64,000 bases of DNA, from IMG/VR virus record IMGVR_UViG_2562617057_000010, positions 9,241 through 73,240 of that record; one strand, given 5' to 3'. Numbering within the stretch: the stretch's first letter is position 1; each line of letters opens with the position of its first letter. The DNA is from a virus (Duplodnaviria; Heunggongvirae; Uroviricota; Caudoviricetes). Position numbers and translations under genes: made by a program. Under the pieces are notes generated by a model that was not told the origin of the DNA, ran no database searches, and saw only the letters and a program-made list of their open reading frames with translations. Below are positions 34,308 through 61,542 of this stretch, one piece after another.

Positions 34308-36473
34308 ATGGGCCTTGTCCCTCCCGCTGTCCCGCTTTTTCCGGCACTGCCAGCAGGCGAAAACCCTCTCTCAATATCACCGTTAAATCAGGAGATTTCT
34401 GTGACCGGGAAACGCTTAAAAGCGTCTGTCATTATTGATCTTAATGGCAATCTTTCCCGGCGTTCCCGCCAGTATTCGAACCAGATAAACGCCCTGTCCC
34501 GCAGCGGGCAGAGTTCCCTGCGTGCCCTGCGTATGGAGGTTGTGCGCGTTTCTGGTGCCATTGACAGAATGGGTTCTCTGTCAACCCGTACATTCCGAAT
34601 GCTGTCAGCCGGGGCGCTGGGTATCGCTGGCGTGGGTTACACCGCCAATAAACTGTTTATTGGTGCAGCCGCCCAGCGTGAGCAGCAGATTATCGCCATG
34701 AACTCGCTCTATCACGGCGATAAGGCCAGAGCACAGGCCATGATGGCGTGGGCGAAGCAGAACGCAAAAGAAACCACCTGGGGGCTGGGTGGTGTTCTGC
34801 AGGAGATCCGCACATCAACTGCGTTTGGCATGACTGATGCCCAGGTAAAACAGTTCATCACCATGCTACAGAACCAGGGCGCGATGCATGGCTGGGATTT
34901 ACCCACTGCACAGGGGGCTTCGTTACAGTTCAAACAGATGTTTGCCCGTCAGCAAATCACGGCGGCGGATGCCAACCTGCTGACCGGTTACGGTATCAAC
35001 GTTTACAAGGTGCTGGCAGATGCAACGGGTGAGGATGAGAAAAAAATCCGTAAGCTGGGTGAAAAAGGCAAACTGGGCCTGAAATCCATCCTGACGGTGT
35101 TCAGAATCTTACTGGAACAGTCAAAAGGCGCACAGGCGGCGGCCATGAACTCCTGGGACGGGATGATGGCCCAGATGGAGGGCAATCTGCTTGAGTTTCG
35201 TACAAAGGTGGCAAACAGCGGCCCCTTTGAAGAAATCAAGAACGAGATGCGCCGGGTACTTAACTGGCACGACATGGCGGATAAATCCGGGGAACTTGAC
35301 GCACTGGCAGAAAACATTGGTCAGAAATTTCTGACCACGTTCAGAACGGTAAAAATCGCGGCGCAGGAATTATGGCGCTGGCTGAAACCGGGTAAAGATG
35401 CGCTGGCATGGGTTGACCAGAATATTGCCAGCCTGAAAAAACTGGCTGCTGTTCTGGTGTCTGTCTGGCTTGCCAATAAAGCCCTGAGAGCAGGCTGGGC
35501 CGTGGCAAAACCTTCGTGGCAGGTTGCCAGTTACCCGTTTAAAACCGGGCGTCGTATGTGGCGCTGGATGCGGAACCGCAAACGTGGGCGGGCAGGTCTG
35601 CCGGTGCCGGATGCCATGACGTCTGAGACGCTGTTGCAGGGCACCGGCATTCAGCGTGTGTTTGTCATCAACTGGCCCCGTGGATTTGGTGGCTACGGGA
35701 GTGGCGGCGGTCGTCGCGGACGGAGCGGCGGAAGAATGGCCCCGCTGTTACCCCGCCAGCCGTTATTGCTGTCCGGGCCACAGCCGCTGGCATTACCTGC
35801 ACCACGCCCTGTACTGGCATTACCCCCACCCGGCGTACCGGTAACGGCACGGCCTGCACCATTACCTTTACCCGGTAAATCCGGTCTTCTGAGCAGGCTT
35901 GCAGGCAGTGCTGCCGGGCAACTGGTTACGGGAACGGTCGGAAAGCTGGCTGATGCCGGGCGTGCTGTTGGCGGGTGGTTTTCCGGTATCGGAAACAAAC
36001 TTGCAGGCAGTGCGATCGGTCGGGTTGTGACAAAAGGTGCCGGGGCGCTGGGCTGGATGGGGAAAGGTGCCGGTCGTGCGTTGTCATGTCTGGGTGGCCC
36101 GGTAATGGGGGCACTCCAGCTTGCCCCCGTCCTGATGGATGAGCAGGCGTCAACCCATGAAAAAGCAGGCGCAATTGGCAGTACAGCCGGTGCATGGCTC
36201 GGCGGTGCCGTTGGCAGCCTTGCCGGACCGCTGGGTACGGTTGCCGGTGCCACGCTGGGCAGTGTCGCCGGGGAGTATCTGGGCGGTTTTGTAACCGACC
36301 TGTATCAGAAATGGACGGCCCCGGATAAGGAACCGCAGGAACAAAAAGTGAATGCGGAAGCCTCGCTGCGCGTCGAACTTGGCGAGGGGTTACGCCTGAC
36401 CAGTTCCCGTGTCACCGAGGATGGTATGGGGCTGAATATTTACGCGGGCGATAACTACATTACGGGCTGGTAA
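34308..36473 (+). CDS. tail tape measure protein (Mu Y-like)
   Basis: About 700 aa, Gly/Ala/Pro-rich; alternative start GTG at 34401 with AGGAG upstream. Confidence 0.8.
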
Positions 36474-41722: not shown

Positions 41723-43233
41723 TGTTTTATATTGATAACGACAGCGGCGTAACCGTCATGCCGCCCGTATCCGCCCAGCGTAGTGCTATCGTTCGCTGGT
41801 TTTCAGAAGGTGACGGGAATAATGTTATCACATGGCCCGGCATGGACTGGTTTAATATTGTGCAGGCGGAGTTATTAAACACGCTGGAAGAAGCCGGTAT
41901 TCAACCGGATAAAACAAAATTAAACCAGCTTGCACTGTCCATTAAAGCCATTATGAGCAATAACGCGCTGCTGATAAAAAATAACCTCAGCGAAATTAAA
42001 ACTGCCGGGGCATCAGCACAGCGTACAGCACGTGAAAATCTGGATATCTATGATGCCAGCCTGAACAAAAAAGGACTCGTTCAGCTAACCAGTGCCACTG
42101 ACAGCCCCAGTGAAACGCTGGCAGCCACCGCAAAAGCGGTGAAAATTGCGATGGATAATGCCAGTGCCCGTCTGGCAAAAGACCGGAACGGAGCAGATAT
42201 TCCCAATAAGCCGCTGTTTATCCAAAACGTCGGTTTACAGGAAACGGTAAACCGGGCCAGGAACGCTGTGCAAAAAAATGGCGATACCTTGTCCGGCGGA
42301 CTTACTTTTGAAAACAACTCAATCCTTGCCTGGATTCGGAATACTGACTGGGCAAAGATTGGTTTTAAAAATGATGCCGACAGCGATACTGATTCCTACA
42401 TGTGGTTTGAAACAGGCGACAACGGCAATGAATATTTCAAATGGAGACACCGCATCATTGGCACCCGGCCTAAAGACCTGATGAATCTTAAATGGAATGC
42501 TTTGTCTGTTCTTGTTAAAGCCCTTTTCAGCAGTGAAGTGAAAATATCGACAGTCAATGCACTGAGGATATTTAATTCATCTTTTGGTGCCATTTTTCGC
42601 CGTTCTGAAGAATGCCTGCATATCATCCCTACACGAGAGAATGAGGGAGAAAATGGTAATATAGGGCCATTACGCCCCTTTACGCTTAATCTCAGAACTG
42701 GCCGGATAAGCATGGGGCATGGTCTGGTTGTTACAGGAGATATATTTGCAAACCGTTTTGCAATTAACAGTAGTACCGGCATGTGGATTCATATGCGTGA
42801 CCAGAATGTTATTCTGGGCCGTAATGCGGTATCCAACGATGGTGCGCAGGCATTGCTTCGCCAGGACCATACCGACCGTAAATTCGTAATTGGTGGGCTG
42901 GGGAATAAGCAATTTGGCATCTACATGATTAATAACTCAAGGACAGCCAATGGCACCGATGGTCAGGCGTACATGGATAATAACGGTAACTGGCTTTGTG
43001 GTGCGCAAGTTATTCCCGGCAACTATGGCAATTTTGATTCCAGATATGTGAAAGATGTTCGACTTGGTACTCGTGTTGTTCAGGTCATGCAAAGAGGCGT
43101 GATGTATGAAAAATCAGGTCATGTAATAACAGGGCTTGGCATTATTGGCTCTGTTGATGGTGATGACCCAGCAGTATTCAGACCAATACAAAAATACATC
43201 AATGGCACATGGTATAACGTCGCACAGGTATAA
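41722..43233 (+). CDS. tail fibre protein S (constant part plus variable part Sv)
   Basis: 503 aa; gix-like site at codon ~167; C-terminus ...RPIQKYINGTWYNVAQV shared with the S' cassette end (...PVQYCINGTWYNAGSI). Confidence 0.85.
   Translation: MFYIDNDSGVTVMPPVSAQRSAIVRWFSEGDGNNVITWPGMDWFNIVQAELLNTLEEAGIQPDKTKLNQLALSIKAIMSNNALLIKNNLSEIKTAGASAQRTARENLDIYDASLNKKGLVQLTSATDSPSETLAATAKAVKIAMDNASARLAKDRNGADIPNKPLFIQNVGLQETVNRARNAVQKNGDTLSGGLTFENNSILAWIRNTDWAKIGFKNDADSDTDSYMWFETGDNGNEYFKWRHRIIGTRPKDLMNLKWNALSVLVKALFSSEVKISTVNALRIFNSSFGAIFRRSEECLHIIPTRENEGENGNIGPLRPFTLNLRTGRISMGHGLVVTGDIFANRFAINSSTGMWIHMRDQNVILGRNAVSNDGAQALLRQDHTDRKFVIGGLGNKQFGIYMINNSRTANGTDGQAYMDNNGNWLCGAQVIPGNYGNFDSRYVKDVRLGTRVVQVMQRGVMYEKSGHVITGLGIIGSVDGDDPAVFRPIQKYINGTWYNVAQV
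42218..42243 (+). other. gix-like invertase crossover site inside S (left G-segment boundary)
   Basis: TTATCCAAAACGTCGGTTTACAGGAA, imperfect 12-2-12 dyad of the gix/hix/cix type; no inverted second copy found. Confidence 0.6.
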
Positions 43234-43792: not shown

Positions 43793-44326
43793 TCATTCTG
43801 GTTGTTCTGGAAACGTTACTGGCAGGCTGGAGGTGTCTGTGGATTCGACCTTCTGCGCATAGAGCATCCACTCGGTTAATTTTTGTTTATTCTCGTCGGA
43901 AATGATGCCCAGCCGTAGCTGTGAGTCCCATAGCTGAGTTTTATCCCTGACAAGTTGCAACAGACTTTGCTTTTCATTTTCCGCCTGTTGCCTCTGTTCT
44001 TCCCCGGTATAAGTTCGCTTTATCACTACGCCATCTTTGAACATCCATTTACCCGAAATATCAGCCCGGCGATTTGCTGTAATATCAGGTAATTCAATGA
44101 CGCTTGCGCCTTCCGGATTAATTGCTGAAACATCCTTTTCAATACAAATAATAACGCCGTTGTGGTCATAGACCATTTTCAACGTATCAGGCTGAAAGTT
44201 CTTTTGCTCCTCATACCAGTTTTTCCCATCCTCTGTATAAAGCCATTTGATGTTAAATTGCTTTGTTAGCTGGTATTGCTCTTTTGTTTCAGGATTACCA
44301 GCAGAAATGTTTTTTAAGTGCATCAT
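43793..44326 (-). CDS. tail fibre assembly protein U' (alternative cassette, not expressed in this orientation)
   Basis: 177-aa intact ORF paralogous to U. Confidence 0.75.
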   Translation of the reverse strand: MMHLKNISAGNPETKEQYQLTKQFNIKWLYTEDGKNWYEEQKNFQPDTLKMVYDHNGVIICIEKDVSAINPEGASVIELPDITANRRADISGKWMFKDGVVIKRTYTGEEQRQQAENEKQSLLQLVRDKTQLWDSQLRLGIISDENKQKLTEWMLYAQKVESTDTSSLPVTFPEQPE

Positions 44327-44328
44327 CG

Positions 44329-44841
44329 TTAAATACTCCCCGCGTTATACCACGTTCCATTAATGCAATACTGAACTGGCCTTGCCTGAGTTGTATCAAT
44401 TAGTGCATCTCTGTTTGAGTTAACGGAACCGGTAACAACATAACCTGACCTGTCAGACCAGCCGGGACCATTCCATGTCTGAACAGATGACAGACCACCA
44501 AGGCGAATACCTGTAATAAACCTTGAGTTACATTCTGCCTGCGTATATGCGCCAACATCTCTCGCTGATGGCTTGCGTGTTGTGGTGTAAAACTCTGACC
44601 AGCCAGCCTCAAATCCATAACCATCACGCGCTGAACGATAAAAAATACCGCCGTTCTTATAATTCACACGGAACTGTACAGCAGGGCAACTCCCCGTATT
44701 CATATTGAAGTGGAGTATTAATGCTGTTGCGCCTTTGATATCTGCATCATAAACACCGCTAATCAATGCAATATAGAAAACGACGATCGAATCAATTGAA
44801 TCGATCGGTAATACAGATCGATTATGTCCTGATAACCACAC
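44329..44841 (-). other. S' variable tail-fibre cassette remnant, 5'-truncated
   Basis: C-terminal fibre-tip homology to Sv; in-frame stop immediately upstream of the GTG at 44841; the first ~20 codons coincide with the mom GATC control region. Confidence 0.6.
44785..44819 (+). promoter_or_regulatory. three clustered GATC sites upstream of com-mom (Dam-dependent mom control region)
   Basis: GATC at 44785, 44803 and 44816, 75-110 bp upstream of com ATG, matching the known Mu mom regulation layout. Confidence 0.6.
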
Positions 44842-44893
44842 TCACCCCATGATGTTTTTTAAGATAGTGGCGAATTGATGCAAAGGAGGTGAG

Positions 44894-45082
44894 ATGAAAT
44901 CAATTCGCTGTAAGAACTGCAACAAACTGTTATTTAAGGCGGGTTCCTTTGATCACATTGAAATCAGGTGTCCGCGTTGCAAACGTCACATCATAATGCT
45001 GAATGCCTGCGAGCATCCCACGGAGAAACATTGTGGGAAAAGAGAAGAAATCACGCATTCTGACGAAACCGTGCGTTATTGA
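44894..45082 (+). CDS. com: Com zinc-finger translational activator of mom
   Basis: 62 aa, [16 protein letters not shown]...[12 protein letters not shown], matching Mu Com as recalled from memory; overlaps mom start. Confidence 0.85.
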
Positions 45083-45728
45083 GTATGAAGGCCAGATTGT
45101 TGGCTATGGTTCAAAGGAGCTGCGCGTTGAAACCATATCCTGCTGGCTGGCCCGCACAATCATTCAGACAAAACATTACTCCCGCCGTTTTGTGAATAAC
45201 TCTTACCTTCACCTGGGAGTATTCAGCGGACGTGAGCTGGTTGGCGTTCTCCAGTGGGGATATGCCCTTAACCCCAACTCAGGTCGTCGTGTCGTGCTTG
45301 AAACGGATAACCGGGGTTATATGGAGCTGAACCGCATGTGGCTACACGACGACATGCCCCGCAACTCTGAATCACGGGCCATCAGTTATGCGCTGAAAAC
45401 CATCAGATTACTGTATCCATCAGTGGAATGGGTACAGTCCTTTGCAGACGAACGCTGCGGACGTGCTGGCGTTGTGTATCAGGCGTCAAATTTTGATTTT
45501 ATTGGCGGCCATGAAAGCACGTTCTACGAGCTGGATGGCGAGTGGTATCACGAGATAACGATGAACGCGATTAAGCGCGGTGGACAACGAGGCGTGTATT
45601 TACGGGCTAATAAAGAGCGTGCCGTGGTGCATAAATTTAATCAGTATCGCTACATCAGGTTCCTGAACAAGCGAGCAAAGAAGCGGCTAAATACTAAGCT
45701 ATTCAGGATTCAGCCATATCCGAAATGA
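45003..45728 (+). CDS. mom: Mom DNA modification protein (acetyltransferase-like)
   Basis: 241-aa ORF overlapping com, Mu Mom-like, last gene before the right end. Confidence 0.85.
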
Positions 45729-45748
45729 TCCCATTTAATGAATAAAAA

Positions 45749-45772
45749 AACAGCGGTTAATGCCGCTGTTTT
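45749..45772 (+). terminator. rho-independent terminator after mom
   Basis: AACAGCGG-TTAAT-GCCGCTGTT hairpin followed by TTTT, overlapping the innermost right-end repeat. Confidence 0.6.
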
Positions 45773-45846
45773 ATCTTGAATAACTTCCATATGCGCGCTT
45801 CTGGCTTATCTTGAATGATTTCCATATCTATCTTGAATAATTTTCC
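45771..45846 (+). repeat. Mu-like right end: three inverted transposase-binding-type repeats TTATCTTGAA (45771, 45806, 45829)
   Basis: Reverse complements of the left-end 10-mer, compactly spaced; outermost copy with flank (GGAAAATTATTCAAGATA) mirrors the left terminus (GGTAATTTATTCAAGATA). Confidence 0.6.
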
Positions 45847-45860
45847 GCGCTTTACTTTCG

Positions 45861-46562
45861 TTATACCGCCCGTAATGCGCGCAGACGGGCGGCTATTTTG
45901 TTTCGTATGGCGCGAACACCTGCTTTGGGAGTGGTGCTGTGCGCACGGGCCATCCACTCATCGGCGCTACGTAGTTTCGCCACGTCGTAAATGGCGGCCG
46001 GGGTTGTCGGTTTGCCATCGCTGTCCCGTAACAGGTTAAGACCGGCGAATTTGTACCATCTGGCAACTATCTCTTCGTGCAGTGTCCAGTCTTTTTCGAT
46101 ATGGCTCATCACGCGGCTGAAATAGGGCTCGACGGAAAGGCCTTTATCAAACTGAATCTGTGCCCACTGCATGACCTCATCGGCGACGAACGTTGGCAAA
46201 TCACGGTCAAAGCGTGGTGGCATGGGTTGATTCTGTCCGATGGCGATATCGGCCCATTCCAGAGCTTTGTCCATTTCGCCGGTATCAAACAGCCAGACGA
46301 TGCACCAGGTAAACGGGATGTATTTGTACTCCTCGCCGCTTTGCAGCCACGCCTCAATCGTCGGCATCCAGCGCGGCAGCAGGGATTCACGCTTGAATGC
46401 CACACGATCGGCGTTGGTGGCGCAACTGCTCACAGCCCTGCAGTCGATTTCCAGTTGCGCCAGTTGCAGATGAAGACTGTCGCGTACGGTCAGTGCCTCG
46501 CGGTGTTCCATTGCCTGCTGCGCGGCCAGTCTGGCTCTGAACTTTTGCGCCGGAGTCTGCAT
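45861..46562 (-). CDS. terminase endonuclease (small) subunit, P2 gpM-like
   Basis: 233-aa ORF following N-like capsid gene in P2 O-N-M order. Confidence 0.7.
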   Translation of the reverse strand: MQTPAQKFRARLAAQQAMEHREALTVRDSLHLQLAQLEIDCRAVSSCATNADRVAFKRESLLPRWMPTIEAWLQSGEEYKYIPFTWCIVWLFDTGEMDKALEWADIAIGQNQPMPPRFDRDLPTFVADEVMQWAQIQFDKGLSVEPYFSRVMSHIEKDWTLHEEIVARWYKFAGLNLLRDSDGKPTTPAAIYDVAKLRSADEWMARAHSTTPKAGVRAIRNKIAARLRALRAV

Positions 46563-46573
46563 ACGTCAGTCCG

Positions 46574-47623
46574 TTACGCTGCCTGGTTTGGTTTCGCATG
46601 TTCAGGTGATGGCAGTCCTGCCAGTTCAATGTTGTCAAACGAACCGTAGAGTGCGTCATATTCCACGGCGCAACCCTGCATACGCAGCCAGTTGTTTTCG
46701 AAGCGTTTGCGGTCATCAATCCATTCGGCACGGCGTTGCTGTGTTCCGCGCTGGAAGTACATATGCAGATTCCAGAGCGTGGTGACAACCAGGCGGTTAT
46801 CCGGCATAAATGGCGGACTGAATGACTTGCGTCCGGCGATCTCACGGTTGATAAGCTGGGCGGCGACTTTTTCTGTCGGGCGGTCGATGCGGTTCAGCAT
46901 ACTGACCGTATCTGCTGCGATAATGTTCTGTGATACCAGTACAACCAGATCCGGGTGTTGACGGAATTCGGGTGGAATGCAGGTATTGATTACATCGGCG
47001 GCAATAGCATCAACAGACGTAAAATCAGCCCCGGTTCCTGTACGGTTCAATACGACCTTGTCAGTAATGATCTGTTTTGGTGTGCGCGCTTTAACAATCT
47101 GATGCCATCCCGGGTGAATATCTTCCCCGTTCGGGCAGGTATCAGGATTGGTTTCATCTGCGGCATGTGTACCGTTCAGTGCCACGCGTAACAGGTCGTT
47201 GGTGACTGACTTGTAAAAGAACGCCTGAAGACGGTTATAGAACTCGTTTTCGGTGCCTGCGTTTGCCCAGTTGGTCAGGGTGGTGTAGTCCAGGAATGAA
47301 CCGGAATCCACTTCGTAAAGCTTGTACTCGTTGCCTTCACTCCCCAGCGCTTTATTGAAGCGTCCGTCTTTCTTGCGCCCGGTATACAACCCCGGAATTC
47401 CGGTACTGACTACCTGGCCGACAAGCTGTTCGACCAGCATGACGGTGATCTTGCCCATGAACGGGTCGGCATTCTCAATCAGGGCATCGCGTAGCAGGGT
47501 TTCACGCGGTGGGCTGATGGTAAAAAACTGTTGTGCTGTAAATACGCCATTGGCTTTTGCCATCGAAATGGCGTAATTACGCAAAAACTTTTGCGCCTGT
47601 GGTGATAACATCTGTGCGGCCAT
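46574..47623 (-). CDS. major capsid protein, P2 gpN-like
   Basis: 349 aa (P2 N ~357), between O-like and M-like genes. Confidence 0.8.
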   Translation of the reverse strand: MAAQMLSPQAQKFLRNYAISMAKANGVFTAQQFFTISPPRETLLRDALIENADPFMGKITVMLVEQLVGQVVSTGIPGLYTGRKKDGRFNKALGSEGNEYKLYEVDSGSFLDYTTLTNWANAGTENEFYNRLQAFFYKSVTNDLLRVALNGTHAADETNPDTCPNGEDIHPGWHQIVKARTPKQIITDKVVLNRTGTGADFTSVDAIAADVINTCIPPEFRQHPDLVVLVSQNIIAADTVSMLNRIDRPTEKVAAQLINREIAGRKSFSPPFMPDNRLVVTTLWNLHMYFQRGTQQRRAEWIDDRKRFENNWLRMQGCAVEYDALYGSFDNIELAGLPSPEHAKPNQAA

Positions 47624-47671
47624 TGGTTTTTTCTCCGGTTGGTCCTTTTGTCTGTTTTTCTCAACGACCGC

Positions 47672-48784
47672 TTACAGCGGCTCAAACTGTGCGGGTTGTC
47701 CGCCGGGTGCTACGCCCGGCATCGGTGTGCGCCGGGCTTCAATGGCCGAAAAACGCTGGCTCAGATTTTCGATTGCACTGGTAAGCGTTGTCAGTGTGGC
47801 GGCGTCGGCCTCATCATCTTTTTCCGTCTTTCGGGTACTGAAATTCTGCGCTGCGGCTGGTGCTGGCTGTTGTCCGCCATTACGGGCGGCGATACGTGCC
47901 TGGAGTTTTGCGGTTTCAGCATCCTGTGGCTGCACCGTAAAGGTGTTAAGTGCGGTCTGTAGCTCCGTCACGGCGGTGGTGTAGTTCTGGCGTGCCGTGT
48001 CGTCTTTCGGGTTGATGGCCAGTGTGTCAGTGGCAACGGAAAGCTTTTCACTCAGCTCCGCAACGTGATTAGCGTGAGCGCTGAAATCCCCGGTTACTGG
48101 CTGTGTGTCTGCTGTTGCGGATGCCGTGGGCTGCGCCGGTGCGGGTTGCTGTGCCTGTGGTTGCGTGTTCGCCTGCGCGTCAATTTTTGCCGTCAGAGTG
48201 ACAATCTGGGCTAGCAACTGGTTCGCCTGTTCTTTAGTCATGGATTTATCCTCATGATGGTTTGTTGGGGTGTCAGCGACCAGCGTCAGACGCCCAAGAC
48301 TGAACATTTCAATATTTCCAGCGGCGGCATACTGCGGACGTGAGCCCTGTGTGTTGTTTTCCACTGATTTGATTTCCATGCGCTGGGTTCCCAGACTTGC
48401 CGGACTGTCGGTTGCTGCCAGCCCGTACAGATAGGTTTGCCCGGTGTTGGCATAGTTCTCCCAGAACTCGCACGAGGTAAAGAGCTTCTGGCCGCGATCG
48501 TTAAGGTTAACCAGCGCCTGGTTAGGCTCCAGCTTCGCCATAAGGCGCAGTCTTCCGGCGTCTTCTTTAGCCGCCAGCTCGGAAACAAGCCCCAGATTGG
48601 GGGTAAATTCTCGCTCCTGAAGACTGTATACGGGGTGATTAGGCCAGATCATCGCTGTGTATCTGGCGGTGCTGTAGTTGTCAGCGGCCTGCTGGATCAT
48701 TTCGCGGGTAATGGGGCGACCGTCGATGGCGTAGCCTTCGGTTGCTATGCATATCCAGTCAGTGGTGTATTTCTGCTTTGCCAT
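47672..48784 (-). CDS. capsid scaffolding protein, P2 gpO-like
   Basis: Start at MAKQKYTT (track ORF starts at 48844); central Q/A/P-rich linker; divergent from P. Confidence 0.75.
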   Translation of the reverse strand: MAKQKYTTDWICIATEGYAIDGRPITREMIQQAADNYSTARYTAMIWPNHPVYSLQEREFTPNLGLVSELAAKEDAGRLRLMAKLEPNQALVNLNDRGQKLFTSCEFWENYANTGQTYLYGLAATDSPASLGTQRMEIKSVENNTQGSRPQYAAAGNIEMFSLGRLTLVADTPTNHHEDKSMTKEQANQLLAQIVTLTAKIDAQANTQPQAQQPAPAQPTASATADTQPVTGDFSAHANHVAELSEKLSVATDTLAINPKDDTARQNYTTAVTELQTALNTFTVQPQDAETAKLQARIAARNGGQQPAPAAAQNFSTRKTEKDDEADAATLTTLTSAIENLSQRFSAIEARRTPMPGVAPGGQPAQFEPL

Positions 48785-48941
48785 TTCATTACCGCTTTTT
48801 GATGTATCTGGCGGTATTATTGCGGCTGTTTTCGCGGGTTTCATTCGTTCTGAATCCGGGCTTTTCGTATATGATTTTATGTGCGAAAAATGCCAAAATT
48901 TAACGATATTTCAGAGTGTTATTGCTCTTTATGATGGGCGA

Positions 48942-50765
48942 ATGAAATATACCGAAGAAGTCAGGGACGCTGCCCGCGCCCTGTATCTGAAATTCAGTAC
49001 ACCAAAAGAGATAGCGGCCACGCTGGGGCTTCCTGTGCGTACCGTTTATAACTGGGCTGTCCGGGGGCAATGGAATGAAATGTTACCAGCCGAGTCGGTG
49101 GAAGTGGCTGTCGCTCGGCGAGTGGAACGACTGACCTGCAAGGATGGTAAAAGCGAGCTTGAGCTTGAAGAGCTGCGCTTCCTGATATCCCAGCACGTCA
49201 GGCTGATGGCGCAGAAGAACAAACATGCTGAACGGATGGAAGAGATCCGGGCGATGGTCAATACCGGCGTGGTGGTCAATGATGGCCGACAGGGTAGCAG
49301 TGAAGAAGGGAATGACGAAGGTGGTAAAAAAAGGAAGCGACTACGTAAAAATGATGTCGGCGGACTGACAAAAGAAATATTTGATGAAAAAGCGAATGGT
49401 CATCTGTTTGAATATCAGCAATATGTGCGTGAGCACGGCGACGAACTGTTCCGCTTCATTCTGAAAGGGCGACAGGAAGGATTTACCTACTATTTTGCAT
49501 GGGAAGGGTTTGAAAAGGCCGTTCTCACGGGCAAGAATCAGATATTCTTTTCCGCCAGTAAACCCCAGGCGGAAGTTTTCCGTTTCTATATTCTCAGTAT
49601 TGCGCAGCAATTCTTTGGTGTCGAGCTTAAAGGCAACCCGATTCGCCTCAGCAATGGTGCGATACTGCGTTTTCTGGCGACCAATCCCAATACGGCGCAG
49701 TCCTACAGTGGCGACCTGTACGGGGATGAGGTCTTCTGGATATCGAAATTTGCCCGCCTGCATGAAGTGGCGTCAGCGATGGCGACGCATGACGAATTCC
49801 GTATTACCTATTTTTCAACCCCCAGCACTAAAACGCACCAGGCTTACAGGCTGTGGACAGGGGATGAATGGAAGGGCGACGATCCGAAACGTAAGGCGGC
49901 GGAGTTCCCGACCAGCAAGGAATTGCGTAAAGGTGGACAGGTCTGCCCTGACGGGATCTGGCGCTATGTCATCACAATGGAGGATGCGTGCGCTAAGGGA
50001 CTCAGTGCCAGAGTTAACATTGAGAAGCTGCGTAACCGCTACAGCGCCACGGCGTTTGCCATGCTGTACATGTGTGAGTTCACTGACTCCCGCGACACAG
50101 TATTTAAATTCTCAGACCTTGAAAAATGTGAGGTTGAGTTCGGCATCTGGCAGGACTTCGACCCCTCCGCATTACGGCCTTTTGGTAATCGTGAGGTGTG
50201 GGGTGGTTTTGATCCGTCACGAACGGGTGATAACTCAACATTTGTTATTGTGGCCCCGCCTGTTGAGCCTAAAGAAAAATTTCGCGTGCTGGCTGTCTAC
50301 CAGTGGGTGGGGCTTAACTTCACCTGGCAGGTTAAGCAGATTGAAGAATTAATGAAACGCTACCGGTTTACGCATATCGGGGTGGATATCACGGGTATTG
50401 GCCGGGGTGTTTATGATCAACTGGTACGCTCCGCACCGCGTGAGGTGATGGGGATTAACTACAGTGTTGATAATAAAAATAAACTGGTGCTTAAGATGAT
50501 TGACCTCATTGAGCGGCGACGTATCCAGTGGGTGAAAGATGCGGTTGATGAGGTGACAAAAGAACGTGCCGATATCCCGCTGGCATTTATGGCCATCCGC
50601 CGTGTAATGACTGCCAGTCAGAACGCAATGACGTTCGCCGCCGAACGCAGCGAAACGACCGGTCACGCGGACGTATTTTTTGCCATATCGCACGCGGTCT
50701 GTAATGAACCGCTCGACTATGAATATGACCGCCCCTCGGTGTGGGCATTCGGGAAGGCTGCATGA
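48942..50765 (+). CDS. terminase ATPase (large) subunit, P2 gpP-like
   Basis: About 607 aa from ATG 48942 (track ORF 48747 has an N-terminal extension overlapping O); divergent from O as in P2. Confidence 0.8.
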   Translation: MKYTEEVRDAARALYLKFSTPKEIAATLGLPVRTVYNWAVRGQWNEMLPAESVEVAVARRVERLTCKDGKSELELEELRFLISQHVRLMAQKNKHAERMEEIRAMVNTGVVVNDGRQGSSEEGNDEGGKKRKRLRKNDVGGLTKEIFDEKANGHLFEYQQYVREHGDELFRFILKGRQEGFTYYFAWEGFEKAVLTGKNQIFFSASKPQAEVFRFYILSIAQQFFGVELKGNPIRLSNGAILRFLATNPNTAQSYSGDLYGDEVFWISKFARLHEVASAMATHDEFRITYFSTPSTKTHQAYRLWTGDEWKGDDPKRKAAEFPTSKELRKGGQVCPDGIWRYVITMEDACAKGLSARVNIEKLRNRYSATAFAMLYMCEFTDSRDTVFKFSDLEKCEVEFGIWQDFDPSALRPFGNREVWGGFDPSRTGDNSTFVIVAPPVEPKEKFRVLAVYQWVGLNFTWQVKQIEELMKRYRFTHIGVDITGIGRGVYDQLVRSAPREVMGINYSVDNKNKLVLKMIDLIERRRIQWVKDAVDEVTKERADIPLAFMAIRRVMTASQNAMTFAAERSETTGHADVFFAISHAVCNEPLDYEYDRPSVWAFGKAA

Positions 50766-51817
50766 GTAAACGTAAAAGCGCACGCCTGCGTAAACGGGCA
50801 CAGACAGAAAATTTTACTCCCGGACGCGGCAATATTATCACTTTTGGGGAGCCGGAACCGATACTGACTACCGGCACGGAATACATCAACGTCTGGTATA
50901 ACGGTAGCTACAACTACTGGACACTACCAATAGACAGACTTGCGCTCGCGCAGTTGCCGAACCTTAACGCCCAGCATGGCGGCGTACTGTATGCACGCAA
51001 AAATATGGTGTGTGCCAGCTACCAGGGGGGTGGACTGACGACCGATCAGATGGAAATGGCTGTCTTTGACTACCTGCTGTTTGGTGATGTGGCCATTCTG
51101 AAGGTCCGTAACGGGTGGGGACGGGTGGTGGCGCTGGCACCATTACCGTCTTTGTATCTGCGTCGCAGCAAGCAACTTGATTTTATCGTGTTACAGGAGG
51201 GCGAGCCGCTGGTCTATTCGCCGTCTGATGTTGTGTTTTTACGTATGCATGATCCGCGACAGCAGATTTATGGACTGCCTGATTATATCGGTGGTATTCA
51301 TTCAGCGTTACTGAACAGTGAGGCGACCATTTTCAGACGTCGCTACTATCACAACGGTGCGCATATGGGGTTCATCATGTACGCGTCCGACCCGAATATG
51401 TCTGTTGAGGCTGAAGAAGCTATACGTAAAAAAATAGAGAGCGGTAACGGGCTTGGGAATTTCCGTAACATGTTTATCAGTATCCCAAAAGGGCAACCGG
51501 ACGGGATTAAAATTATTCCGGTTGGGGATATTCAGCAAAAAGATGAGTTTTCAAATGTGAAGAATATCAGCGCTCAGGATGTTCTTACGGCGCACCGCTT
51601 TCCGGCTGGTCTTGCCGGTATTATCCCGCAAAATGCGAGCGGACTTGGCGATCCCGATAAGGCAAGGACAACCTATGGACGGGATGAAGTGACACCTGTC
51701 TGCCGTAAATTCATGCAGGCTGTGAACAGCGATCCCGAAATCCCCCCGTCGTTACACCTTAATTTTACGCTGGAAGATGTGGAAAATGTGGTGTCTGCGC
51801 TGGCTGATGAAAAATAA
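50762..51817 (+). CDS. portal protein, P2 gpQ-like
   Basis: 351 aa from ATG 50762 overlapping P stop (ATGA); follows terminase as in P2 P-Q. Confidence 0.8.
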   Translation: MSKRKSARLRKRAQTENFTPGRGNIITFGEPEPILTTGTEYINVWYNGSYNYWTLPIDRLALAQLPNLNAQHGGVLYARKNMVCASYQGGGLTTDQMEMAVFDYLLFGDVAILKVRNGWGRVVALAPLPSLYLRRSKQLDFIVLQEGEPLVYSPSDVVFLRMHDPRQQIYGLPDYIGGIHSALLNSEATIFRRRYYHNGAHMGFIMYASDPNMSVEAEEAIRKKIESGNGLGNFRNMFISIPKGQPDGIKIIPVGDIQQKDEFSNVKNISAQDVLTAHRFPAGLAGIIPQNASGLGDPDKARTTYGRDEVTPVCRKFMQAVNSDPEIPPSLHLNFTLEDVENVVSALADEK

Positions 51818-51867
51818 CCCGAAAAAGACTATATTACCCCTGCAACCGGTCAGATTGTGGGGGGGTT

Positions 51868-52143
51868 ATGGCGGGTGTGATGAAAATTGAATGTCCGGCG
51901 TGTCACTGCCGGGCGGCTATACGCAAAACTGCATGGCAGGATGACGCAAAAACGCTGGCGGTAGTTTATTGCACCTGCACTAATTCTGACTGTAATATGC
52001 GTTTTTCGCTCAATCTTTCCGATCTTCGCGTGATTTCACCCAGTGACCTGCAAACTGATGGTGTCGTTAAAGCATTGCTCCAGCGCCTTAAACCAGACGA
52101 AAGGCAAATGGCACTGGATATTCTGCTCAGTGATGGCGCGTAA
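51868..52143 (+). CDS. ogr: Ogr/Delta-type zinc-finger late transcription activator
   Basis: CPAC-x~20-CTCTNSDC cysteine pattern of Ogr/Delta family; 91-aa ORF. Confidence 0.6.
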   Translation: MAGVMKIECPACHCRAAIRKTAWQDDAKTLAVVYCTCTNSDCNMRFSLNLSDLRVISPSDLQTDGVVKALLQRLKPDERQMALDILLSDGA

Positions 52144-52198
52144 GTGCCATTCTGTGGGGCGGTGGATCTTCCGCTTCCTCGCCCTGACAGACTCACCG

Positions 52199-52447
52199 CT
52201 ATGCGGTTCGCCCGGCATTTCTGAAATCAATGTGCAATAGCTCCAGTGCGGCTTCTTTATCAGCACCCGTTAATTCGAGATAATCCCAGAGGCTGGCGCA
52301 TAAACCACAGTTTCGCGAAAATATTCCGTCTGGATTTGCTCCGTTTTTCAGCCACAAATCATAAGTAATATAAAATCCGTGAAGTTGTTGCCTGATATTT
52401 TCTTTGATTTCCTGTACTGGCACGGTGTCTGGTAATTGCTCTCTCAT
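52199..52447 (-). CDS. hypothetical protein (distal to replication gene)
   Basis: 82-aa ORF overlapping upstream gene by 4 nt. Confidence 0.4.
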   Translation of the reverse strand: MREQLPDTVPVQEIKENIRQQLHGFYITYDLWLKNGANPDGIFSRNCGLCASLWDYLELTGADKEAALELLHIDFRNAGRTA

Positions 52448-52875
52448 TGTGGATCTCTCCTGTGTTGTGCCGGTCTGGCGAATGAAGGGTGCTGCGATGA
52501 AAAGACCCTTCGCGCCAGTGCGGCCTTGCGATTGACGGCAGTCAGTGTTCTGGCCAGCGCGACATTGTGTTTGCGGGCCTGCTCTTCGTGGTACTTCTGC
52601 ATGATTTTTCCGGCCGGGGTGAGCGGCTCCGGTTCTTCCGGCGAACGGCGTGGGCGAACGGCAATGGTCCAGCTCTGATATTCACTGCCCGGTCGCCTGT
52701 TAAGTATGTCGGTGATGGTGGTTGTGGTGGTGCGATCGGGGCTGGCCACCGTGATTTCCAGTTCGTCCCCGGGCTGTGGTCTTGTGGCTACGCCTCTCAG
52801 TGTCATGGCTGGCGTGCGCTGGCGCATAACGGCGTCGAACTGCTGACGCTGCATGGTGCAGTGAAATCGCGTCAT
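52444..52875 (-). CDS. hypothetical protein
   Basis: 143-aa ORF overlapping the stop of the replication gene by 4 nt. Confidence 0.45.
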   Translation of the reverse strand: MTRFHCTMQRQQFDAVMRQRTPAMTLRGVATRPQPGDELEITVASPDRTTTTTITDILNRRPGSEYQSWTIAVRPRRSPEEPEPLTPAGKIMQKYHEEQARKHNVALARTLTAVNRKAALARRVFSSQHPSFARPAQHRRDPQ

Positions 52876-55391
52876 GATCTTACCTCCGCTGACGACTCCT
52901 GTGTGATGACGATACGGCGGGTTGTGGCGCTCCAGTACGCGATACGCCCGTCGCCCGGGCGAACGCGGGCACCGTTACTCACGGAAATAATGGCTGCGTC
53001 AGGCAGCTGCACACCCAGCGCGTCGAGTTCGCGGGTGATTTGTGCGATGGTCGTGGTGTCGACAGGCACGACAACCTCCACCCTGACAGGGGTGTCTGAT
53101 GCTGGTCTGGTGTTATTTTGTCCGGTATCCGTGGTGGGCGGCTGATTTTTAAGCTGTCTGATGAGCTGTTTCCGCTCGTGACGGGTTAACGTCTGCAACC
53201 AGTGCGCCAGGCCGCTTTCCGGAAGCGTCAGCCGCGACCCACGCTGCCTGTTTTCTGTGCCGGTTCCGGCTGTTTTTTCGTCACCGGGACAGTTATTGCC
53301 ACGAGTCCAAGGGGCGGCAGGGCCGCCCTGAAGGTCAAAACCATTTTCGCGGGCGCTGTCTTCCGCTTCCGGTTTACGTCTTACCAGCTTCCAGTTGTCC
53401 GGATGCGTGCACACACGGGAGGATTCCCCGATGAGTGGCGACCAGATCCCGTAAATCTGTACGCTCTGTTCGCCGTAATCGTTCAGCTCATCTGCGAGGT
53501 CGTAGGCGGTGCGAATCAGGTAGTCCTTACGTGGAACAAGTACGCCGCCCTGTTTCTCTATGTAGGTGGCAAAACACCCGGCATCAGCGGCAGCAAGAAC
53601 CGCATCCATTGCGTCATCCTTCAGCCGTTGCGGACCTTCTGGGTTGCGTGCCATCTGGCTGGCAAGGCGGCGCAGTTCACGCCATACCTGACGGGAGGGG
53701 ATGCCAAAGAACTGGAACTGGCGGACCCGGTGAAGGCGCGCCCAGCCGATGGCGCGTTCCACGCTTTCTGCCATCGTCTTTCCTGATTCGTCGTCGATGC
53801 GCGGTTTGCCTGTTTTCGGGTCAATGCCATCCACGGCGTGGCTGTCCAGGTTCTTTCCGATGTAGGTGGCGATATAGCTGGTCGGCGTACCTTTCGAACC
53901 GTCGACGTACTCCGCCTTAAAGCGCGGAGTTATGTCATCGCCCAGCTCGTGGCGGTCTTCACGAATGGCAATATCGCGGGCGATGGTCACGATGCTGTCG
54001 ATTTCTTCAGGATGTGCAAAGACCATCATATGCCAGTGCACCGTGCCGTCATGGTGAGGCTCCACCGTGCGGATGCCATACCAGCGCAGGCCCTTGCGGT
54101 CCAGTCTGTTACGAACGGCTTTAAAAAAAGTGTTAACCAGATAATCACTGGAATCGCGCATGGTAGCCCCGTTCCATTTGGGGTTCGGATGACCGTTCTC
54201 CGTTGTTGCGTGGTATTTTGACGGGCAGGTGACAGTCAGAAACACCGCTTTGTCGCCACGGGATTCGGCTATAAGTTCCGCCCCTTTCATGGTGGCCATC
54301 ATTTCTGCCTTACGGTGAACCGGGTTACTTACTCCCGCGTAATACACTGTCTCGAGATCAATCGTGAACCCGTCTTCATTTTCCAGCATGAAACTTTTCA
54401 GAAAATCGCGTGTTTTCTCGCGCTGTGCGCGAAACTCACTTAACGCGTCCTGGCTCAGATAGGGCGATGTTTTTCTGGAAACCAGACAGGCGGCGCGGAG
54501 TTGTTCTTCTCTCCACTCGCAACGTAAAAGCCACAGTTTGCGTTTCCACCAGTCCGCACAGGTCAGGCGAAGGATTGCGCTCGGCAGCAGTTCCGTGTCC
54601 GGTTCGTTCTTGCGGTCTTTGTCTGTTGTCAGCGCGTCATAATGTGGAGGCATGGCGTGCAGGTGTAGCGCCATGCGGGCCAGCATCTGATACGCCTTCA
54701 GTGCCACCTCCATGGTCAGCTCGCCATCTCTGGCACCGAAACCATCACAGAGTGTTTCAAAGGAGCTGCTGAACATTGCCGCCGTCATGGTGCCCAGCGT
54801 CTGTATCTGGTGCTTGTTAAGCTGCGGCAGGTACAGCAAATCGTCTAGGCGTTCGCGTCCGGCAAGGGCGCGATAACCCGGTGTCAGCCAGCGGCTGTCG
54901 GTGCGGTCCAGTCGTTCGAATATTTTGCGCAGGGTTCCGCGCGCGTAGCCCTCTGATGGTCGACTCTTTTTGCCTTTCTGGCGGTCAGATTCCTGCTTCT
55001 TACGTAAAAAAGAGAGGCGGCGGCTCAGAGGTTCACGCAGATAAACAGGTAGCGCCTTTAGTGTGACAAATGCACGGGCCACCGGGTCTTGTTCTGTTGC
55101 CTGGCGCTTGCTGATGATGCTTTGTGTTACCTTCTCGCGCCGTTCGTCCTCATCGAGGGCGACCATGAGTTTTTTACCCATGTCTGACTGCACAAAAAAG
55201 GCTTCTTCTTCCGCCTCCCTGACTTCCTGTGCTTTCAGATCTGCTTCCTGGTAGTAGCGTATGGCCTGTTGCAACGGGGTTTCAGGCGTAGGCTGATACT
55301 TCGCAAATGTGGCTGGGTCAATGGCCTGCCGTGGTTCGTTCCAGTCCCAGGTAAATTTACTCATGGTTGACACCCTGTCACGCGTTGCCAT
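52872..55391 (-). CDS. replication initiation endonuclease, P2 gpA-like
   Basis: 839 aa with HUH-type motif (TVHWHMMVF), at the end of the early operon. Confidence 0.85.
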   Translation of the reverse strand: MATRDRVSTMSKFTWDWNEPRQAIDPATFAKYQPTPETPLQQAIRYYQEADLKAQEVREAEEEAFFVQSDMGKKLMVALDEDERREKVTQSIISKRQATEQDPVARAFVTLKALPVYLREPLSRRLSFLRKKQESDRQKGKKSRPSEGYARGTLRKIFERLDRTDSRWLTPGYRALAGRERLDDLLYLPQLNKHQIQTLGTMTAAMFSSSFETLCDGFGARDGELTMEVALKAYQMLARMALHLHAMPPHYDALTTDKDRKNEPDTELLPSAILRLTCADWWKRKLWLLRCEWREEQLRAACLVSRKTSPYLSQDALSEFRAQREKTRDFLKSFMLENEDGFTIDLETVYYAGVSNPVHRKAEMMATMKGAELIAESRGDKAVFLTVTCPSKYHATTENGHPNPKWNGATMRDSSDYLVNTFFKAVRNRLDRKGLRWYGIRTVEPHHDGTVHWHMMVFAHPEEIDSIVTIARDIAIREDRHELGDDITPRFKAEYVDGSKGTPTSYIATYIGKNLDSHAVDGIDPKTGKPRIDDESGKTMAESVERAIGWARLHRVRQFQFFGIPSRQVWRELRRLASQMARNPEGPQRLKDDAMDAVLAAADAGCFATYIEKQGGVLVPRKDYLIRTAYDLADELNDYGEQSVQIYGIWSPLIGESSRVCTHPDNWKLVRRKPEAEDSARENGFDLQGGPAAPWTRGNNCPGDEKTAGTGTENRQRGSRLTLPESGLAHWLQTLTRHERKQLIRQLKNQPPTTDTGQNNTRPASDTPVRVEVVVPVDTTTIAQITRELDALGVQLPDAAIISVSNGARVRPGDGRIAYWSATTRRIVITQESSAEVRS

Positions 55392-55750
55392 TCCTGCGAG
55401 AAGAGGGCAGAAAGACGGTTAAACTCAGTGGTGTATTCACTCAGCGAGGCACACCCGCCAGCGGTGCGATGCGCCAGCATTGCTGCAAACACGGAGGCAG
55501 GGGAGTTGTAATACGCCAGCAGGGAGTCGCCGTGTGGTGTCAGGGTGTACAGGGCCAGACCGTGTGGTGTGAAGTCCACGCGGTAACAGTCGTCCACGAT
55601 GAAATAAAGGGGGCCTGCGTTCTCTGGTTTTGTGGTGCGAGCCTGGCTGGCGCGGGCACGGAGATAGAAATCAAACATTGCCTGAAGTTTTGGAGCCAGA
55701 CGGGTGTCCTGTGTGCGCACCCATTTTACGAAGTCATGACGGTCAATCAT
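55361..55750 (-). CDS. hypothetical early protein
   Basis: 129-aa ORF overlapping A start. Confidence 0.45.
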   Translation of the reverse strand: MIDRHDFVKWVRTQDTRLAPKLQAMFDFYLRARASQARTTKPENAGPLYFIVDDCYRVDFTPHGLALYTLTPHGDSLLAYYNSPASVFAAMLAHRTAGGCASLSEYTTEFNRLSALFSQEWQRVTGCQP

Positions 55751-55822
55751 GCTGCACCTCGCTTTGTTAAAGATGTGCGAAGGCCTCCCGCCGCAAGGTG
55801 CAGGAAAGGCCCGGAACAGGAA

Positions 55823-56053
55823 TTAATGGAGTTTGTTTTGCTGCTGGATGAGCTGTTGAAGCTCGTGCAGATCATCCGCCAGATAGCTGAATACAGCGGC
55901 GCAGTAGCTGTCTGACAGCGCGTGGCTGCGTTCATGCAGCATATTGATGTGCATGATTTGCGCGACGCGTGATGCGCGGAAAAGTCTGCGGTTGATTTCA
56001 GTCTGGATGTGACGACGCGCAGCGTATGCGCGCTGTTGTTTGCGGTTTGCCAT
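55823..56053 (-). CDS. hypothetical early protein
   Basis: 76-aa ORF. Confidence 0.4.
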   Translation of the reverse strand: MANRKQQRAYAARRHIQTEINRRLFRASRVAQIMHINMLHERSHALSDSYCAAVFSYLADDLHELQQLIQQQNKLH

Positions 56054-56373
56054 GATGTGGCCTCTATGTGTGTAAGTTTTGAAAACTCACCATCCAGAGG
56101 TCTCAAACTCGGGGTGGCGAGACGTACAGGGTTGAGACTACCGGCAAACATAGAACCCGGCCCGACCGAAGTCGGCCCCGTACGCCCCACCATAATTCGT
56201 GTGCGAAAAAGATGTGGCGATACAGTACGCACAAAAAAACCGCTGGCGCGGTTGTGCGCTATGTTTGTCAGCGGGGTCTCAATCCCGGCACCCGTTTTAT
56301 GAGGTGCAGCGGAAATGTAACCTGACTGATTGCGACATGGCAAGCGGTTTTTTTGTGTGTGCATGATGATCAC

Positions 56374-56928
56374 TCAGTTCGGCAGCAGTTCGTACAACAG
56401 GGCGTCGGCGGCGGTCCGGCGGTTGTAGAGGTGAAACGCCGTATCATCGCTGATGTGCATTTGCATCGTGATGTTGATGTGTTTCGCGATTATGCAGAAC
56501 GTCATGTTGCGTCTGTCGCGTAGCTCCGTAACCAGCTCAGCCAGACGATCGCTGTATCTGGTGCAATGGTGGCTCTCGCCGCATTTCTTAAGGCTGTAAC
56601 CCCGTTTATGCAGTGTGTACCTCACGGTGCACTCGCTGCATCCCGCCTTCCGGGCCAGTTCCCGTGCGGTTTTTGCGTGACGGTTTTTGATGAGAAAGGC
56701 GATGGCTTCTGCACTCAGCGGTGCTTTTTTCTTGCGACCAATCAACCCGCGATTACGTAAAAAAAGAATCCGGTGCATCACTGCGCTGCGGGTTCGCTGA
56801 AGTCGTTCAGCCATTTGCCATGTGCTGTGATCCTGATAAAGCGAGATAAGCAGTTCGTCTTCCTGTTGTGTCCATGCACTGACGTGCTTCGGTGCTTTAC
56901 CTGGTCCCCCCATTGGTTTCAGAAACAT
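56374..56928 (-). CDS. hypothetical DNA-binding protein
   Basis: 184-aa ORF with several basic HTH-like segments. Confidence 0.45.
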   Translation of the reverse strand: MFLKPMGGPGKAPKHVSAWTQQEDELLISLYQDHSTWQMAERLQRTRSAVMHRILFLRNRGLIGRKKKAPLSAEAIAFLIKNRHAKTARELARKAGCSECTVRYTLHKRGYSLKKCGESHHCTRYSDRLAELVTELRDRRNMTFCIIAKHINITMQMHISDDTAFHLYNRRTAADALLYELLPN

Positions 56929-57230
56929 GATTTGGCCTCCTTACGGCTTTCTGGTGTGGAGATGATCAGATTCAGTTTCAGGGCGGTGGCGTGTTCCTCT
57001 TTTGCCCCCGGCGAGTCCTCCCAGCCATCCAGCAGGTAAATCACATCGGCACAGTGCAGCATGGCGCTCCCGATAAGCATGTAGTCCCTGTATCTCAGCC
57101 CGTCAGGGAGTGTTGCGGGGTTGAGTACGGTATGGCCCTGCATCCTCAGGCGGGTCGCTGTCATGGTGAAGGCGGTGCGGTTGAAATCAGGCTTTCCCGT
57201 CATGGGGCCGGCGATATAGATAACGGTCAT
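56919..57230 (-). CDS. small conserved phage protein (DUF4406-like candidate)
   Basis: 103 aa (MTVIYIAGPMTG...), overlaps dam stop. Confidence 0.4.
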   Translation of the reverse strand: MTVIYIAGPMTGKPDFNRTAFTMTATRLRMQGHTVLNPATLPDGLRYRDYMLIGSAMLHCADVIYLLDGWEDSPGAKEEHATALKLNLIISTPESRKEAKSCF

Positions 57231-58189: not shown

Positions 58190-58425
58190 GCGTCACTCTC
58201 CGGTTTTTTCCCGCGTGTGAATGGGGTGGGTTCGAGCGTGATTTCGCGCCGGATATTGCGCACGCGTAACTGCGAGCCGTCGTTCAGGCAGATCACGCGT
58301 TCATCATCCGGGCCGGTGATGTTGTCCAGCAGCGAACGGTCAGGGTTGATGTGGCGTTCCCTGATGCGGTAATGGTCGCCGGTGACAGTGCTCTCGCACA
58401 GAATGCAGATAATGGCGGGTTTCAT
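58186..58425 (-). CDS. hypothetical protein
   Basis: 79-aa ORF with 4-nt overlaps. Confidence 0.4.
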   Translation of the reverse strand: MKPAIICILCESTVTGDHYRIRERHINPDRSLLDNITGPDDERVICLNDGSQLRVRNIRREITLEPTPFTRGKKPESDA

Positions 58426-58952: not shown

Positions 58953-59193
58953 CGTCTTATCCTCTTCACGTATTCGTTATGGTTAAGCAGTACCCATGTC
59001 CGGCTTTCGTCCAGACTTAACAGCCGGTAACGGTACATGACGTTGATGACGCGGGCGGGCGGTACCCGCTCCAGCCGTCGCACGTGTGACCGGCCCCCTT
59101 CAGCAGGCGACGGTATGCCGCCCTTGCTGCCCGCTCCGGCTTTCCCCCCTGGCTTCATCCGGTTTTTGCGGTGTCGCGCAGGGATAATCAGCT

Positions 59194-59616: not shown

Positions 59617-59683
59617 TTTTATTTCCCTTATTCAGATTGTGCGAATCCCGCCGCGTGAGCGGTGTATTAACGAAACCGGTTAA

Positions 59684-59899: not shown

Positions 59900-59904
59900 C
59901 GTGA

Positions 59905-60147: not shown

Positions 60148-60188
60148 AACGGAGTCCTCGTTAAAAATAACCGGTGATAAACCCGCTG

Positions 60189-60539: not shown

Positions 60540-60567
60540 ATTTCTACTGGTCCTTGTGTGACGGTAG

Positions 60568-61466: not shown

Positions 61467-61509
61467 AGTGATATATTGTGATCCTCTATCAGTTCGTTAA
61501 TGACATTGT

Positions 61510-61527: not shown

Positions 61528-61542
61528 TGTCAAGGTGATTTA

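Follow-up and report, generated by a model that had tools for sequence, protein, structure and literature searches.

Can one prophage set the DNA modification of another phage that shares its stretch of chromosome? The question is raised by 64,000 nucleotides of Escherichia coli 53638, an EIEC O144 strain (GCA_000167915.2 / AAKB02000001). This stretch, hereafter the window, is prophage DNA throughout; it carries both a com-mom module of the phage Mu type and a gene for a Dam-family methyltransferase. An earlier note on this DNA had proposed that the methylase of one prophage could condition the DNA-modification module of the other. The proposal has three parts, which we take in turn: that the module is under Dam-dependent control, that the methylase reads GATC, and that the one acts on the other.

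The com gene (44894-45082, plus strand) encodes the 62 amino acid zinc-ribbon translational activator of mom (Pfam: PF10122, Zn_ribbon_Com), which is identical to Mu Com at 60 of 62 positions (the changes are D17G and K51E). It overlaps the start of mom (45033-45728, plus strand), the gene for the tRNA(Gly)-dependent adenine N6 hypermodification enzyme (PF25680, 252 bits; no NCBIfam model matches Mom). Counted from the GTG at 45033, as annotated in Mu, the product has 231 amino acids, and an in-frame ATG at 45003 gives the 241 amino acid numbering used in the literature. Mom agrees with its Mu counterpart at 225 of 231 positions, and the segment 44771-45780 is 94% identical in nucleotides to phage Mu (AF083977). 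Com and Mom are thus nearly Mu-identical, as the earlier note had stated. Mom moves glycine from Gly-tRNA(Gly) to the N6 of adenine in double-stranded DNA; by rearrangement the adduct becomes the carbamoylmethyl form, and restriction is blocked by this form (PMC13219725). Nine residues have been described as essential or important for catalysis (R111, S124, W48, H58, Y59, D149, R151, Y159 and W181; PMC13219725). R111 and S124 (241 amino acid numbering) are present by a sequence check and the other seven as read by hand from the sequence; the six substitutions relative to Mu sit away from these positions.

The junction of the two genes carries a hairpin (45016-45038, plus strand), found in both the MFE and the centroid fold, that hides the mom Shine-Dalgarno sequence GGAG (45022-25) and the GUG start at 45033. 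Because the fold is not significant against shuffled sequences (z = -0.8), its assignment as the translation-blocking hairpin rests on the fact that its sequence is identical to that of Mu. In Mu, it is Com that makes mom translation possible (PMC3378877). A bidirectional terminator-like hairpin lies 3' of mom at 45747-45772, and the phage end further downstream is not that of Mu.

The promoter region is equally close to that of Mu. The palindrome TTAT-N6-ATAA at 44821-44834 (plus strand), which we take from the Mu literature to be the site of the late activator C, keeps both half-sites, and three of the six positions of its spacer are changed (GTCCTG here, GCCCCA in Mu). It is followed by the core of Pmom (44835-44865, plus strand), with a -35 element ACCACA (44835-40), a 19-bp spacer containing a run of six T, and a -10 element TAAGAT (44860-65). 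One base of this core differs from Mu and the rest is identical; the com Shine-Dalgarno sequence and ATG come next. Pmom has been described as having poor -35 and -10 elements, suboptimal spacing and a T stretch (PMC3378877), and the finding that 44300-45900 contains no consensus sigma-70 promoter fits such a poor, activator-dependent promoter. The activator C turns on the weak Pmom late in lytic growth (PMC4461284). Its gene (19966-20388, plus strand; PF08765) is intact and is carried by the same Mu-family prophage as com-mom; the product is 98.6% identical to Mu C over 140 of 140 amino acids.

Is the module also under the control of Dam? Upstream of the C site, a control region at 44773-44819 holds three GATC sites (I, 44785-88; II, 44803-06; III, 44816-19) within 35 bp, 109 to 75 bp 5' of the com ATG at 44894, where the earlier note had placed them. 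Their number is no argument in itself: when the 148 GATCs of the window are placed at random, at least one cluster of three in 35 bp appears in 28% of trials, so that chance is not rejected and the cluster count was dropped as a statistical argument. (GATC is depleted across the window, with 148 observed against 233±12 in shuffles, and the triplet comes directly after the longest GATC-free gap, 3.65 kb.) The argument therefore moves to homology and conservation. In an alignment, the trio is unchanged and at matching positions in Mu, D108, SfMu and the Yersinia phage vB_YpM_3, and because of this invariance we regard the sites as being there by homology rather than by chance. Relative to Mu there is one A-to-G change between GATC I and GATC II.

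The same region contains an OxyR-like motif, ATAG-N7-CGAT-N7-ATTG-N7-CGGT (44773-44809), which carries GATC I and II and leaves GATC III outside; its register is our reading from the letters, and we treat it as a candidate operator. A divergent com-mom lineage, in the E. coli strains STEC346 and VL40, keeps TATAG together with GATC I and II at a spacing of 18 bp, although the remaining upstream region has diverged and is otherwise unalignable. The retention of ATAG and two GATCs in this lineage lends independent support to a control scheme of the Mu type. In that scheme, according to a passage of PMC7549136 that cites Sun and Hattman (1996), OxyR can no longer bind once Dam has methylated three GATCs that lie within 43 bp; Dam/OxyR control of mom is also described in PMC2909390 and PMC3378877. 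Hemimethylated Pmom is still bound by OxyR in dam+ cells, going by the title of Hattman and Sun (1997), a paper cited in both PMC3378877 and PMC2909390. The OxyR/Dam switches of agn43 and of the P22 gtr operon resemble mom in having their GATCs inside the OxyR operator, so that methylation and OxyR binding are mutually exclusive (PMC2909390).

Overlapping com and mom genes, three GATCs, a C site, the series -35/T6/-10 and a translation-blocking hairpin are common to this locus and to those of Mu (AF083977, 35693-36602), D108, SfMu and Yersinia vB_YpM. As far as can be read from the sequence, every cis element, both proteins, the C gene and the named essential Mom residues are conserved or intact, and the region belongs with the Mu com-mom family on every point that a sequence can decide. 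We infer all functional steps at the locus by homology with Mu, following the regulatory model of PMC3378877, PMC4461284, PMC7549136 and PMC2909390. In a lysogen and in early infection, Pmom would be off, as a very weak promoter that needs C. OxyR would bind the upstream operator when the GATCs are unmethylated or hemimethylated, and Dam methylation of all three would prevent this binding. Late in lytic growth, C would bind TTAT-N6-ATAA and recruit RNA polymerase, Com would open the hairpin covering the mom ribosome site, and Mom would put glycine on the N6 of adenines, leaving the progeny DNA protected from restriction.

The module is carried by a Mu-family prophage of 36,368 bp (9487-45854, plus strand), whose termini are 5'-TATGACTAGG...CCGCGCTTTA-3' and which has a copy of the duplicated CTTT on either side (9483-9486 and 45855-45858). 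These ends were set by comparison with empty sites and with other insertions. The prophage is collinear with Mu 3229-36653 at 86-98% identity; its middle and late proteins all align with Mu over their full length and Mor is intact, and the repressor, ner, the transposase and both termini are of a non-Mu type. From its sequence, this member of the Mu family is a mosaic: the middle and late region resembles that of Mu, and the repressor, transposase and ends do not.

The ends deserve a remark of their own. Mu has 5'-TG...CA-3' termini and makes a 5-bp target duplication, and neither is found in the prophage at 9487-45854. In this Mu lineage the termini read 5'-TATGAC...CTTTA-3' (TA...TA) at six of six left ends and five of five right ends, each with unrelated flanks, and the target duplication is 4 bp in all four complete insertions (CTTT, AGGA, ATTC, TTCA). 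A model with a 5-bp duplication fits one insertion of the four and was rejected. A search of viral contigs with the right-end 16-mer returned 14 chance matches in unrelated DNA and one true end; IS elements cut short the STEC388 copy of a related prophage, which yielded no left end. The com-mom prophages of STEC346 and VL40 (NZ_CP091044, NZ_CM177011) share the TATGAC...CTTTA ends and the 4-bp duplications, and they likewise carry com-mom directly 3' of the tail-fibre genes with no invertase. They differ from the prophage described here in having divergent structural genes, com-mom alleles and promoter region, and two GATCs only.

Part of what lies upstream of com in Mu has been lost here. At a junction (44741-44771), approximately 1.1 kb equivalent to Mu 34503-35612 is missing, which removes the 5' half of S'v, gixR, the gin promoter and approximately 174 of the 193 gin codons, all of it present in every relative examined. 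The control region is consequently fused to a truncated S'v, and gin is absent upstream of com; a tblastn search for Gin gives no match anywhere in the window, and this gin-less junction occurs in none of the complete E. coli genomes searched. The inversion system of the Mu G segment, Gin with two inverted gix sites, is reduced to a single gix site and no gin. The sole remaining site is gixL in S (42218-42257), which matches Mu 34998-35037 in inverted orientation at 92.5% identity, and the G segment can no longer leave its G(+) orientation. The junction bases, TAATCAATGCAA, bear a weak likeness to both of two origins, a simple deletion and recombination with a gin-less lineage. The edge of the deletion lies 2-8 bp 5' of the ATAG that opens the OxyR-like motif: the control region is kept but has no margin left, and OxyR binding could be altered because the deletion ends so close.

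Such losses raise the possibility that the com-mom module is a decaying remnant, a dead element from which mom is never expressed. The deletion of gin, gixR and half of S'v would agree with this, as would the absence of Mu gp19, the position of the prophage inside another prophage (see below) and the occurrence of the exact Mom allele in one assembly only, the source assembly. Yet all of the other Mu proteins (45 or more) align at full length and at 75-100% identity, among them B, Mor, C and the lysis, head and tail proteins, and lytic growth does not require gin. Transposase lineage and type of ends belong together, and the precise 4-bp duplication at the insertion points to ordinary transposition rather than to a rearranged remnant. 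In com, mom and the control region, the changes relative to relatives are conservative only. We therefore give decay a small chance. A much more probable reading of the sequence, in which we have considerable confidence, is that this is the standard com-mom operon of phage Mu, that it should work as in Mu, that it sits in a mosaic gin-less Mu-family prophage, and that the P2-like Dam adds little to it.

Where does this Dam lie in relation to the module? The earlier note had described a P2-like prophage with its own Dam-family methylase next to the com-mom prophage. The methylase and the P2-like character hold up, but the two prophages are nested and not merely neighbours: the Mu-family prophage is inserted within the P2-like one, between its M and L genes. 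The small terminase gene M (45861-46562, minus strand; PF05944) is thereby split from the head-completion gene L (GPL; 8914-9384, minus strand). In the uninterrupted relatives L003 and L005-L007, GPL follows directly after M across TATAACGAAAGCCCCACGG; in the window TATAACGAAAGCCCCACGG is broken in two, and CTTT stands on both sides of the insertion (9483-86 and 45855-58). Taken over the window and the relatives, the P2-like gene set comprises the GPA replication protein, the small terminase, terminase, P2 capsid, GPO, portal and GPL. Replication and head genes are of P2 type and in P2 order, as in the Peduoviridae, with the integrase from 62975 onward. An early (replication) operon (52444-61466, minus strand) contains dam and the GPA replication gene (52872-55391), and a candidate immunity repressor of the HTH_3 type (61478-61921, plus strand) diverges from it.

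Enlarged and split in this way, the P2-like phage has probably lost the ability to make particles. Strain 53638 is the only one in which the nesting was seen. A transposable phage likewise lies within a temperate phage in the Stx phages LC727881 and LC727895 (annotated there as 'region of the inserted Bacteriophage Mu-like phage'); here, unlike in those two, the recipient is P2-like (Cronobacter ESSI-2-like) and the insertion is in the spacer between M and L in its head operon.

Does the enzyme read GATC? The gene (57227-58189, minus strand) encodes an orphan Dam-family N6-adenine methyltransferase of 320 amino acids, which scores 179 bits with PF02086 and 234 bits with the Dam subfamily model TIGR00571 (cut-off 115). 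The FxGxG and DPPY motifs are present, which places it in the D12 class by fold and motif, and its alignments with E. coli Dam (2g1p, 199 bits) and DpnM (2dpm, 122 bits) cover the full length. No restriction endonuclease is found beside it; its neighbours are a 79 amino acid ORF, a DUF4406 protein and regulators. Compared with E. coli Dam and DpnM it has the replacements Y119F and Y138H, short insertions and a C-terminal tail of approximately 28 amino acids, and it is encoded in a phage early operon, whereas E. coli Dam is encoded in the host dam operon.

Five of the seven residues with which E. coli Dam reads GATC are kept (K9, N120, L122, R124 and P134), and Y119 and Y138 are the two that differ. 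In E. coli Dam, the fourth base pair is discriminated mainly by R124, and L122 and P134 act on the third (PMC4417163). The conservation of five of these seven residues, R124 among them, points to GATC, and this specificity is likely, short of proof.

The other reading would be that the enzyme is of the Dam family with a relaxed or different target, which would make it irrelevant to the mom operator. The replacements Y119F and Y138H fall at DNA-contact positions, and there is the C-terminal extension of about 28 residues; the score of 236 bits with the E. coli Dam equivalog model is below its cut-off of 441, and membership in the TIGR00571 Dam subfamily alone does not establish GATC specificity. 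Against this, the residues that discriminate the third and fourth base pairs (L122/P134 and R124; PMC4417163), as well as N120 and K9, are identical to those of E. coli Dam, phenylalanine in place of Y119 is still an aromatic intercalator, and E. coli Dam and DpnM, its two best relatives by structure, each act on GATC. A different target is thus improbable.

When would it be made? The ATG of the prophage dam overlaps the stop of the upstream ORF, an arrangement of translational coupling, and no promoter-like site was found near the gene. Because it has no promoter of its own and is coupled within an early operon divergent from the gene of the HTH repressor, we expect it to be silent in a lysogen, judging from P2 and 186. 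In E. coli EC958, a Dam homologue carried by a prophage was found to be transcriptionally inactive (PMC4659465). Judged from the sequence, the P2-like Dam is most likely a GATC methylase that would be made only when its early operon is derepressed.

It is tempting to hypothesize that this enzyme conditions mom, either replacing the host Dam or topping up the methylation of rapidly replicating, hemimethylated Mu DNA, so that mom output would depend on a co-resident prophage. Both components are present and look intact, and the same five residues (K9, N120, L122, R124, P134) are conserved in the methylase. If, as the title of Hattman and Sun (1997) has it, OxyR binds hemimethylated Pmom in dam+ cells, extra Dam could matter in principle. 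Here the earlier proposal divides: the com-mom module with its GATC region and the orphan Dam-family enzyme are both there, but the sequence holds no evidence for the conditioning of one by the other.

Several observations speak against such conditioning. The host is E. coli, in which dam is a core gene, so that the mom GATCs would presumably be methylated anyway. The prophage dam, in turn, belongs to an early operon under repressor control and lacks its own promoter. Since mom needs the late activator C and Com, Mom is made only late in the lytic growth of Mu, and one cell would need to have both phages derepressed; the P2-like prophage is moreover interrupted by the Mu-family insertion of 36 kb. 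The pairing itself appears incidental: Mu inserts nearly at random, and of 5426 complete E. coli genomes 5 hold this dam allele and 96 hold com-mom, with the nesting seen in strain 53638 only.

We therefore consider it very improbable that the P2-like Dam conditions mom, and expect that the mom GATCs would be methylated by the host enzyme. The P2-like Dam could methylate the mom operator and would add little in dam+ E. coli; cross-talk is possible in principle, unsupported, and probably redundant with the host enzyme. One narrow form of it can be stated. With both prophages derepressed, the P2-like Dam would raise GATC methylation on rapidly replicating, transiently hemimethylated Mu-family DNA and lift residual OxyR repression of Pmom, for which we see a very small chance; that extra Dam has a measurable natural effect on such DNA is just as hard to credit.

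Were cross-talk real, the co-resident prophage that encloses the other would set how far the DNA of that other phage is hypermodified by Mom, and with this its escape from restriction, also in a dam-deficient host. If demonstrated, it would be an inter-prophage epigenetic cross-talk in which one temperate phage tunes the anti-restriction modification of another. As it stands, the com-mom finding is the already known operon controlled by Dam, OxyR, C and Com, new in its strain only, and a textbook module of regulation met in one more strain adds little. Workers on transposable phages may be more interested in what surrounds it: a Mu lineage with TA...TA ends and a 4-bp duplication, a gin-less mosaic, and a nesting that probably disables a P2-like phage.

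The Mu-family prophage (window 9487-45854) is a mosaic (window 9487-12850), in which the repressor, a ner-like gene, the transposase and both ends are of another lineage than the middle and late genes, which are Mu-like. The repressor (window 9761-10381) belongs to a non-Mu lineage, and the transposase (window 10673-12847) has only approximately 35% identity to the C-terminus of MuA. The left 1.8 kb of the prophage has no match of at least 85% in the phage collection. An identical repressor is found in ten independent short-read contigs (Logan, L009-L018), nine of which end at one common base, 4 nt before the left terminus; the tenth, L014, reaches the terminus exactly. Heterogeneous flanks, or several copies of the element in those samples, would be expected to give such a pattern.

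Mu has TG...CA termini and makes a 5-bp target duplication. In contrast, the prophage in the window begins 5'-TATGACTAGG and ends CCGCGCTTTA-3', i.e., TA...TA, with three copies of a TTCAAGATA repeat at either end. A 4-bp duplication flanks all four complete insertions compared: CTTT in the window (9483-9486 and 45855-45858), AGGA in IMGVR_UViG_2850808358_000012 and, in the E. coli strains STEC346 and VL40, ATTC and TTCA respectively. Just one of the four matches a 5-bp duplication model. Differences in gene content from Mu (window 15886-16491, 17735-18028 and 22890-23169, and the equivalent of Mu 9459-9821) comprise an additional 201 amino acid ORF between gam and gp11, two more inserts of approximately 280 bp each, and the absence of gp19, a protein with four transmembrane segments.

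The insertion, 36.4 kb long, separates head genes M and L of the P2-like prophage (window 1-9486 and 45855-64000), which therefore is probably no longer able to package. Copies without the insertion exist in other assemblies (L003, L005-L007), and the nearest phage is Cronobacter ESSI-2, at approximately 69% nucleotide identity. Directly downstream of the dam gene of the P2-like prophage lies a minus-strand gene (window 56919-57230; PF14359, phrog_355) of the DUF4406, or nucleoside 2-deoxyribosyltransferase-like, type. The same pair is annotated in all five complete E. coli genomes with this dam.

Approximately 1.1 kb present in Mu and all relatives, comprising gin and gixR together with the 5' half of S'v, is absent from the Mu-family prophage. 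Since these are gone, the invertible G segment is fixed as G(+); gixL lies at window 42218-42257. The junction (window 44741-44771) is found in none of the complete E. coli genomes, and either a microhomology deletion or recombination with a gin-less lineage could have produced it. It lies 2-8 bp from the OxyR-like operator of mom, on the upstream side. Also in this region is a mechanical 170 amino acid ORF (window 44329-44841, minus strand), which starts with GTG inside the mom promoter and runs across the GATC region into the truncated C-terminal domain of S'v, with U' following. A divergent promoter, momP2, is described for Mu (PMC3378877) and would transcribe this strand. The ORF is probably meaningless.

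Divergent com-mom modules, likewise gin-less, are found in the Mu-like prophages of STEC346 (L043, 38000-38140) and VL40 (L045, 38230-38370). Both have lost the third GATC, and their promoter-proximal region is unlike that in the window. The TATAG and two GATCs at 18-bp spacing are retained in both of these divergent modules, which suggests that, of the sequence upstream of mom, the OxyR/Dam element is under the strongest constraint.
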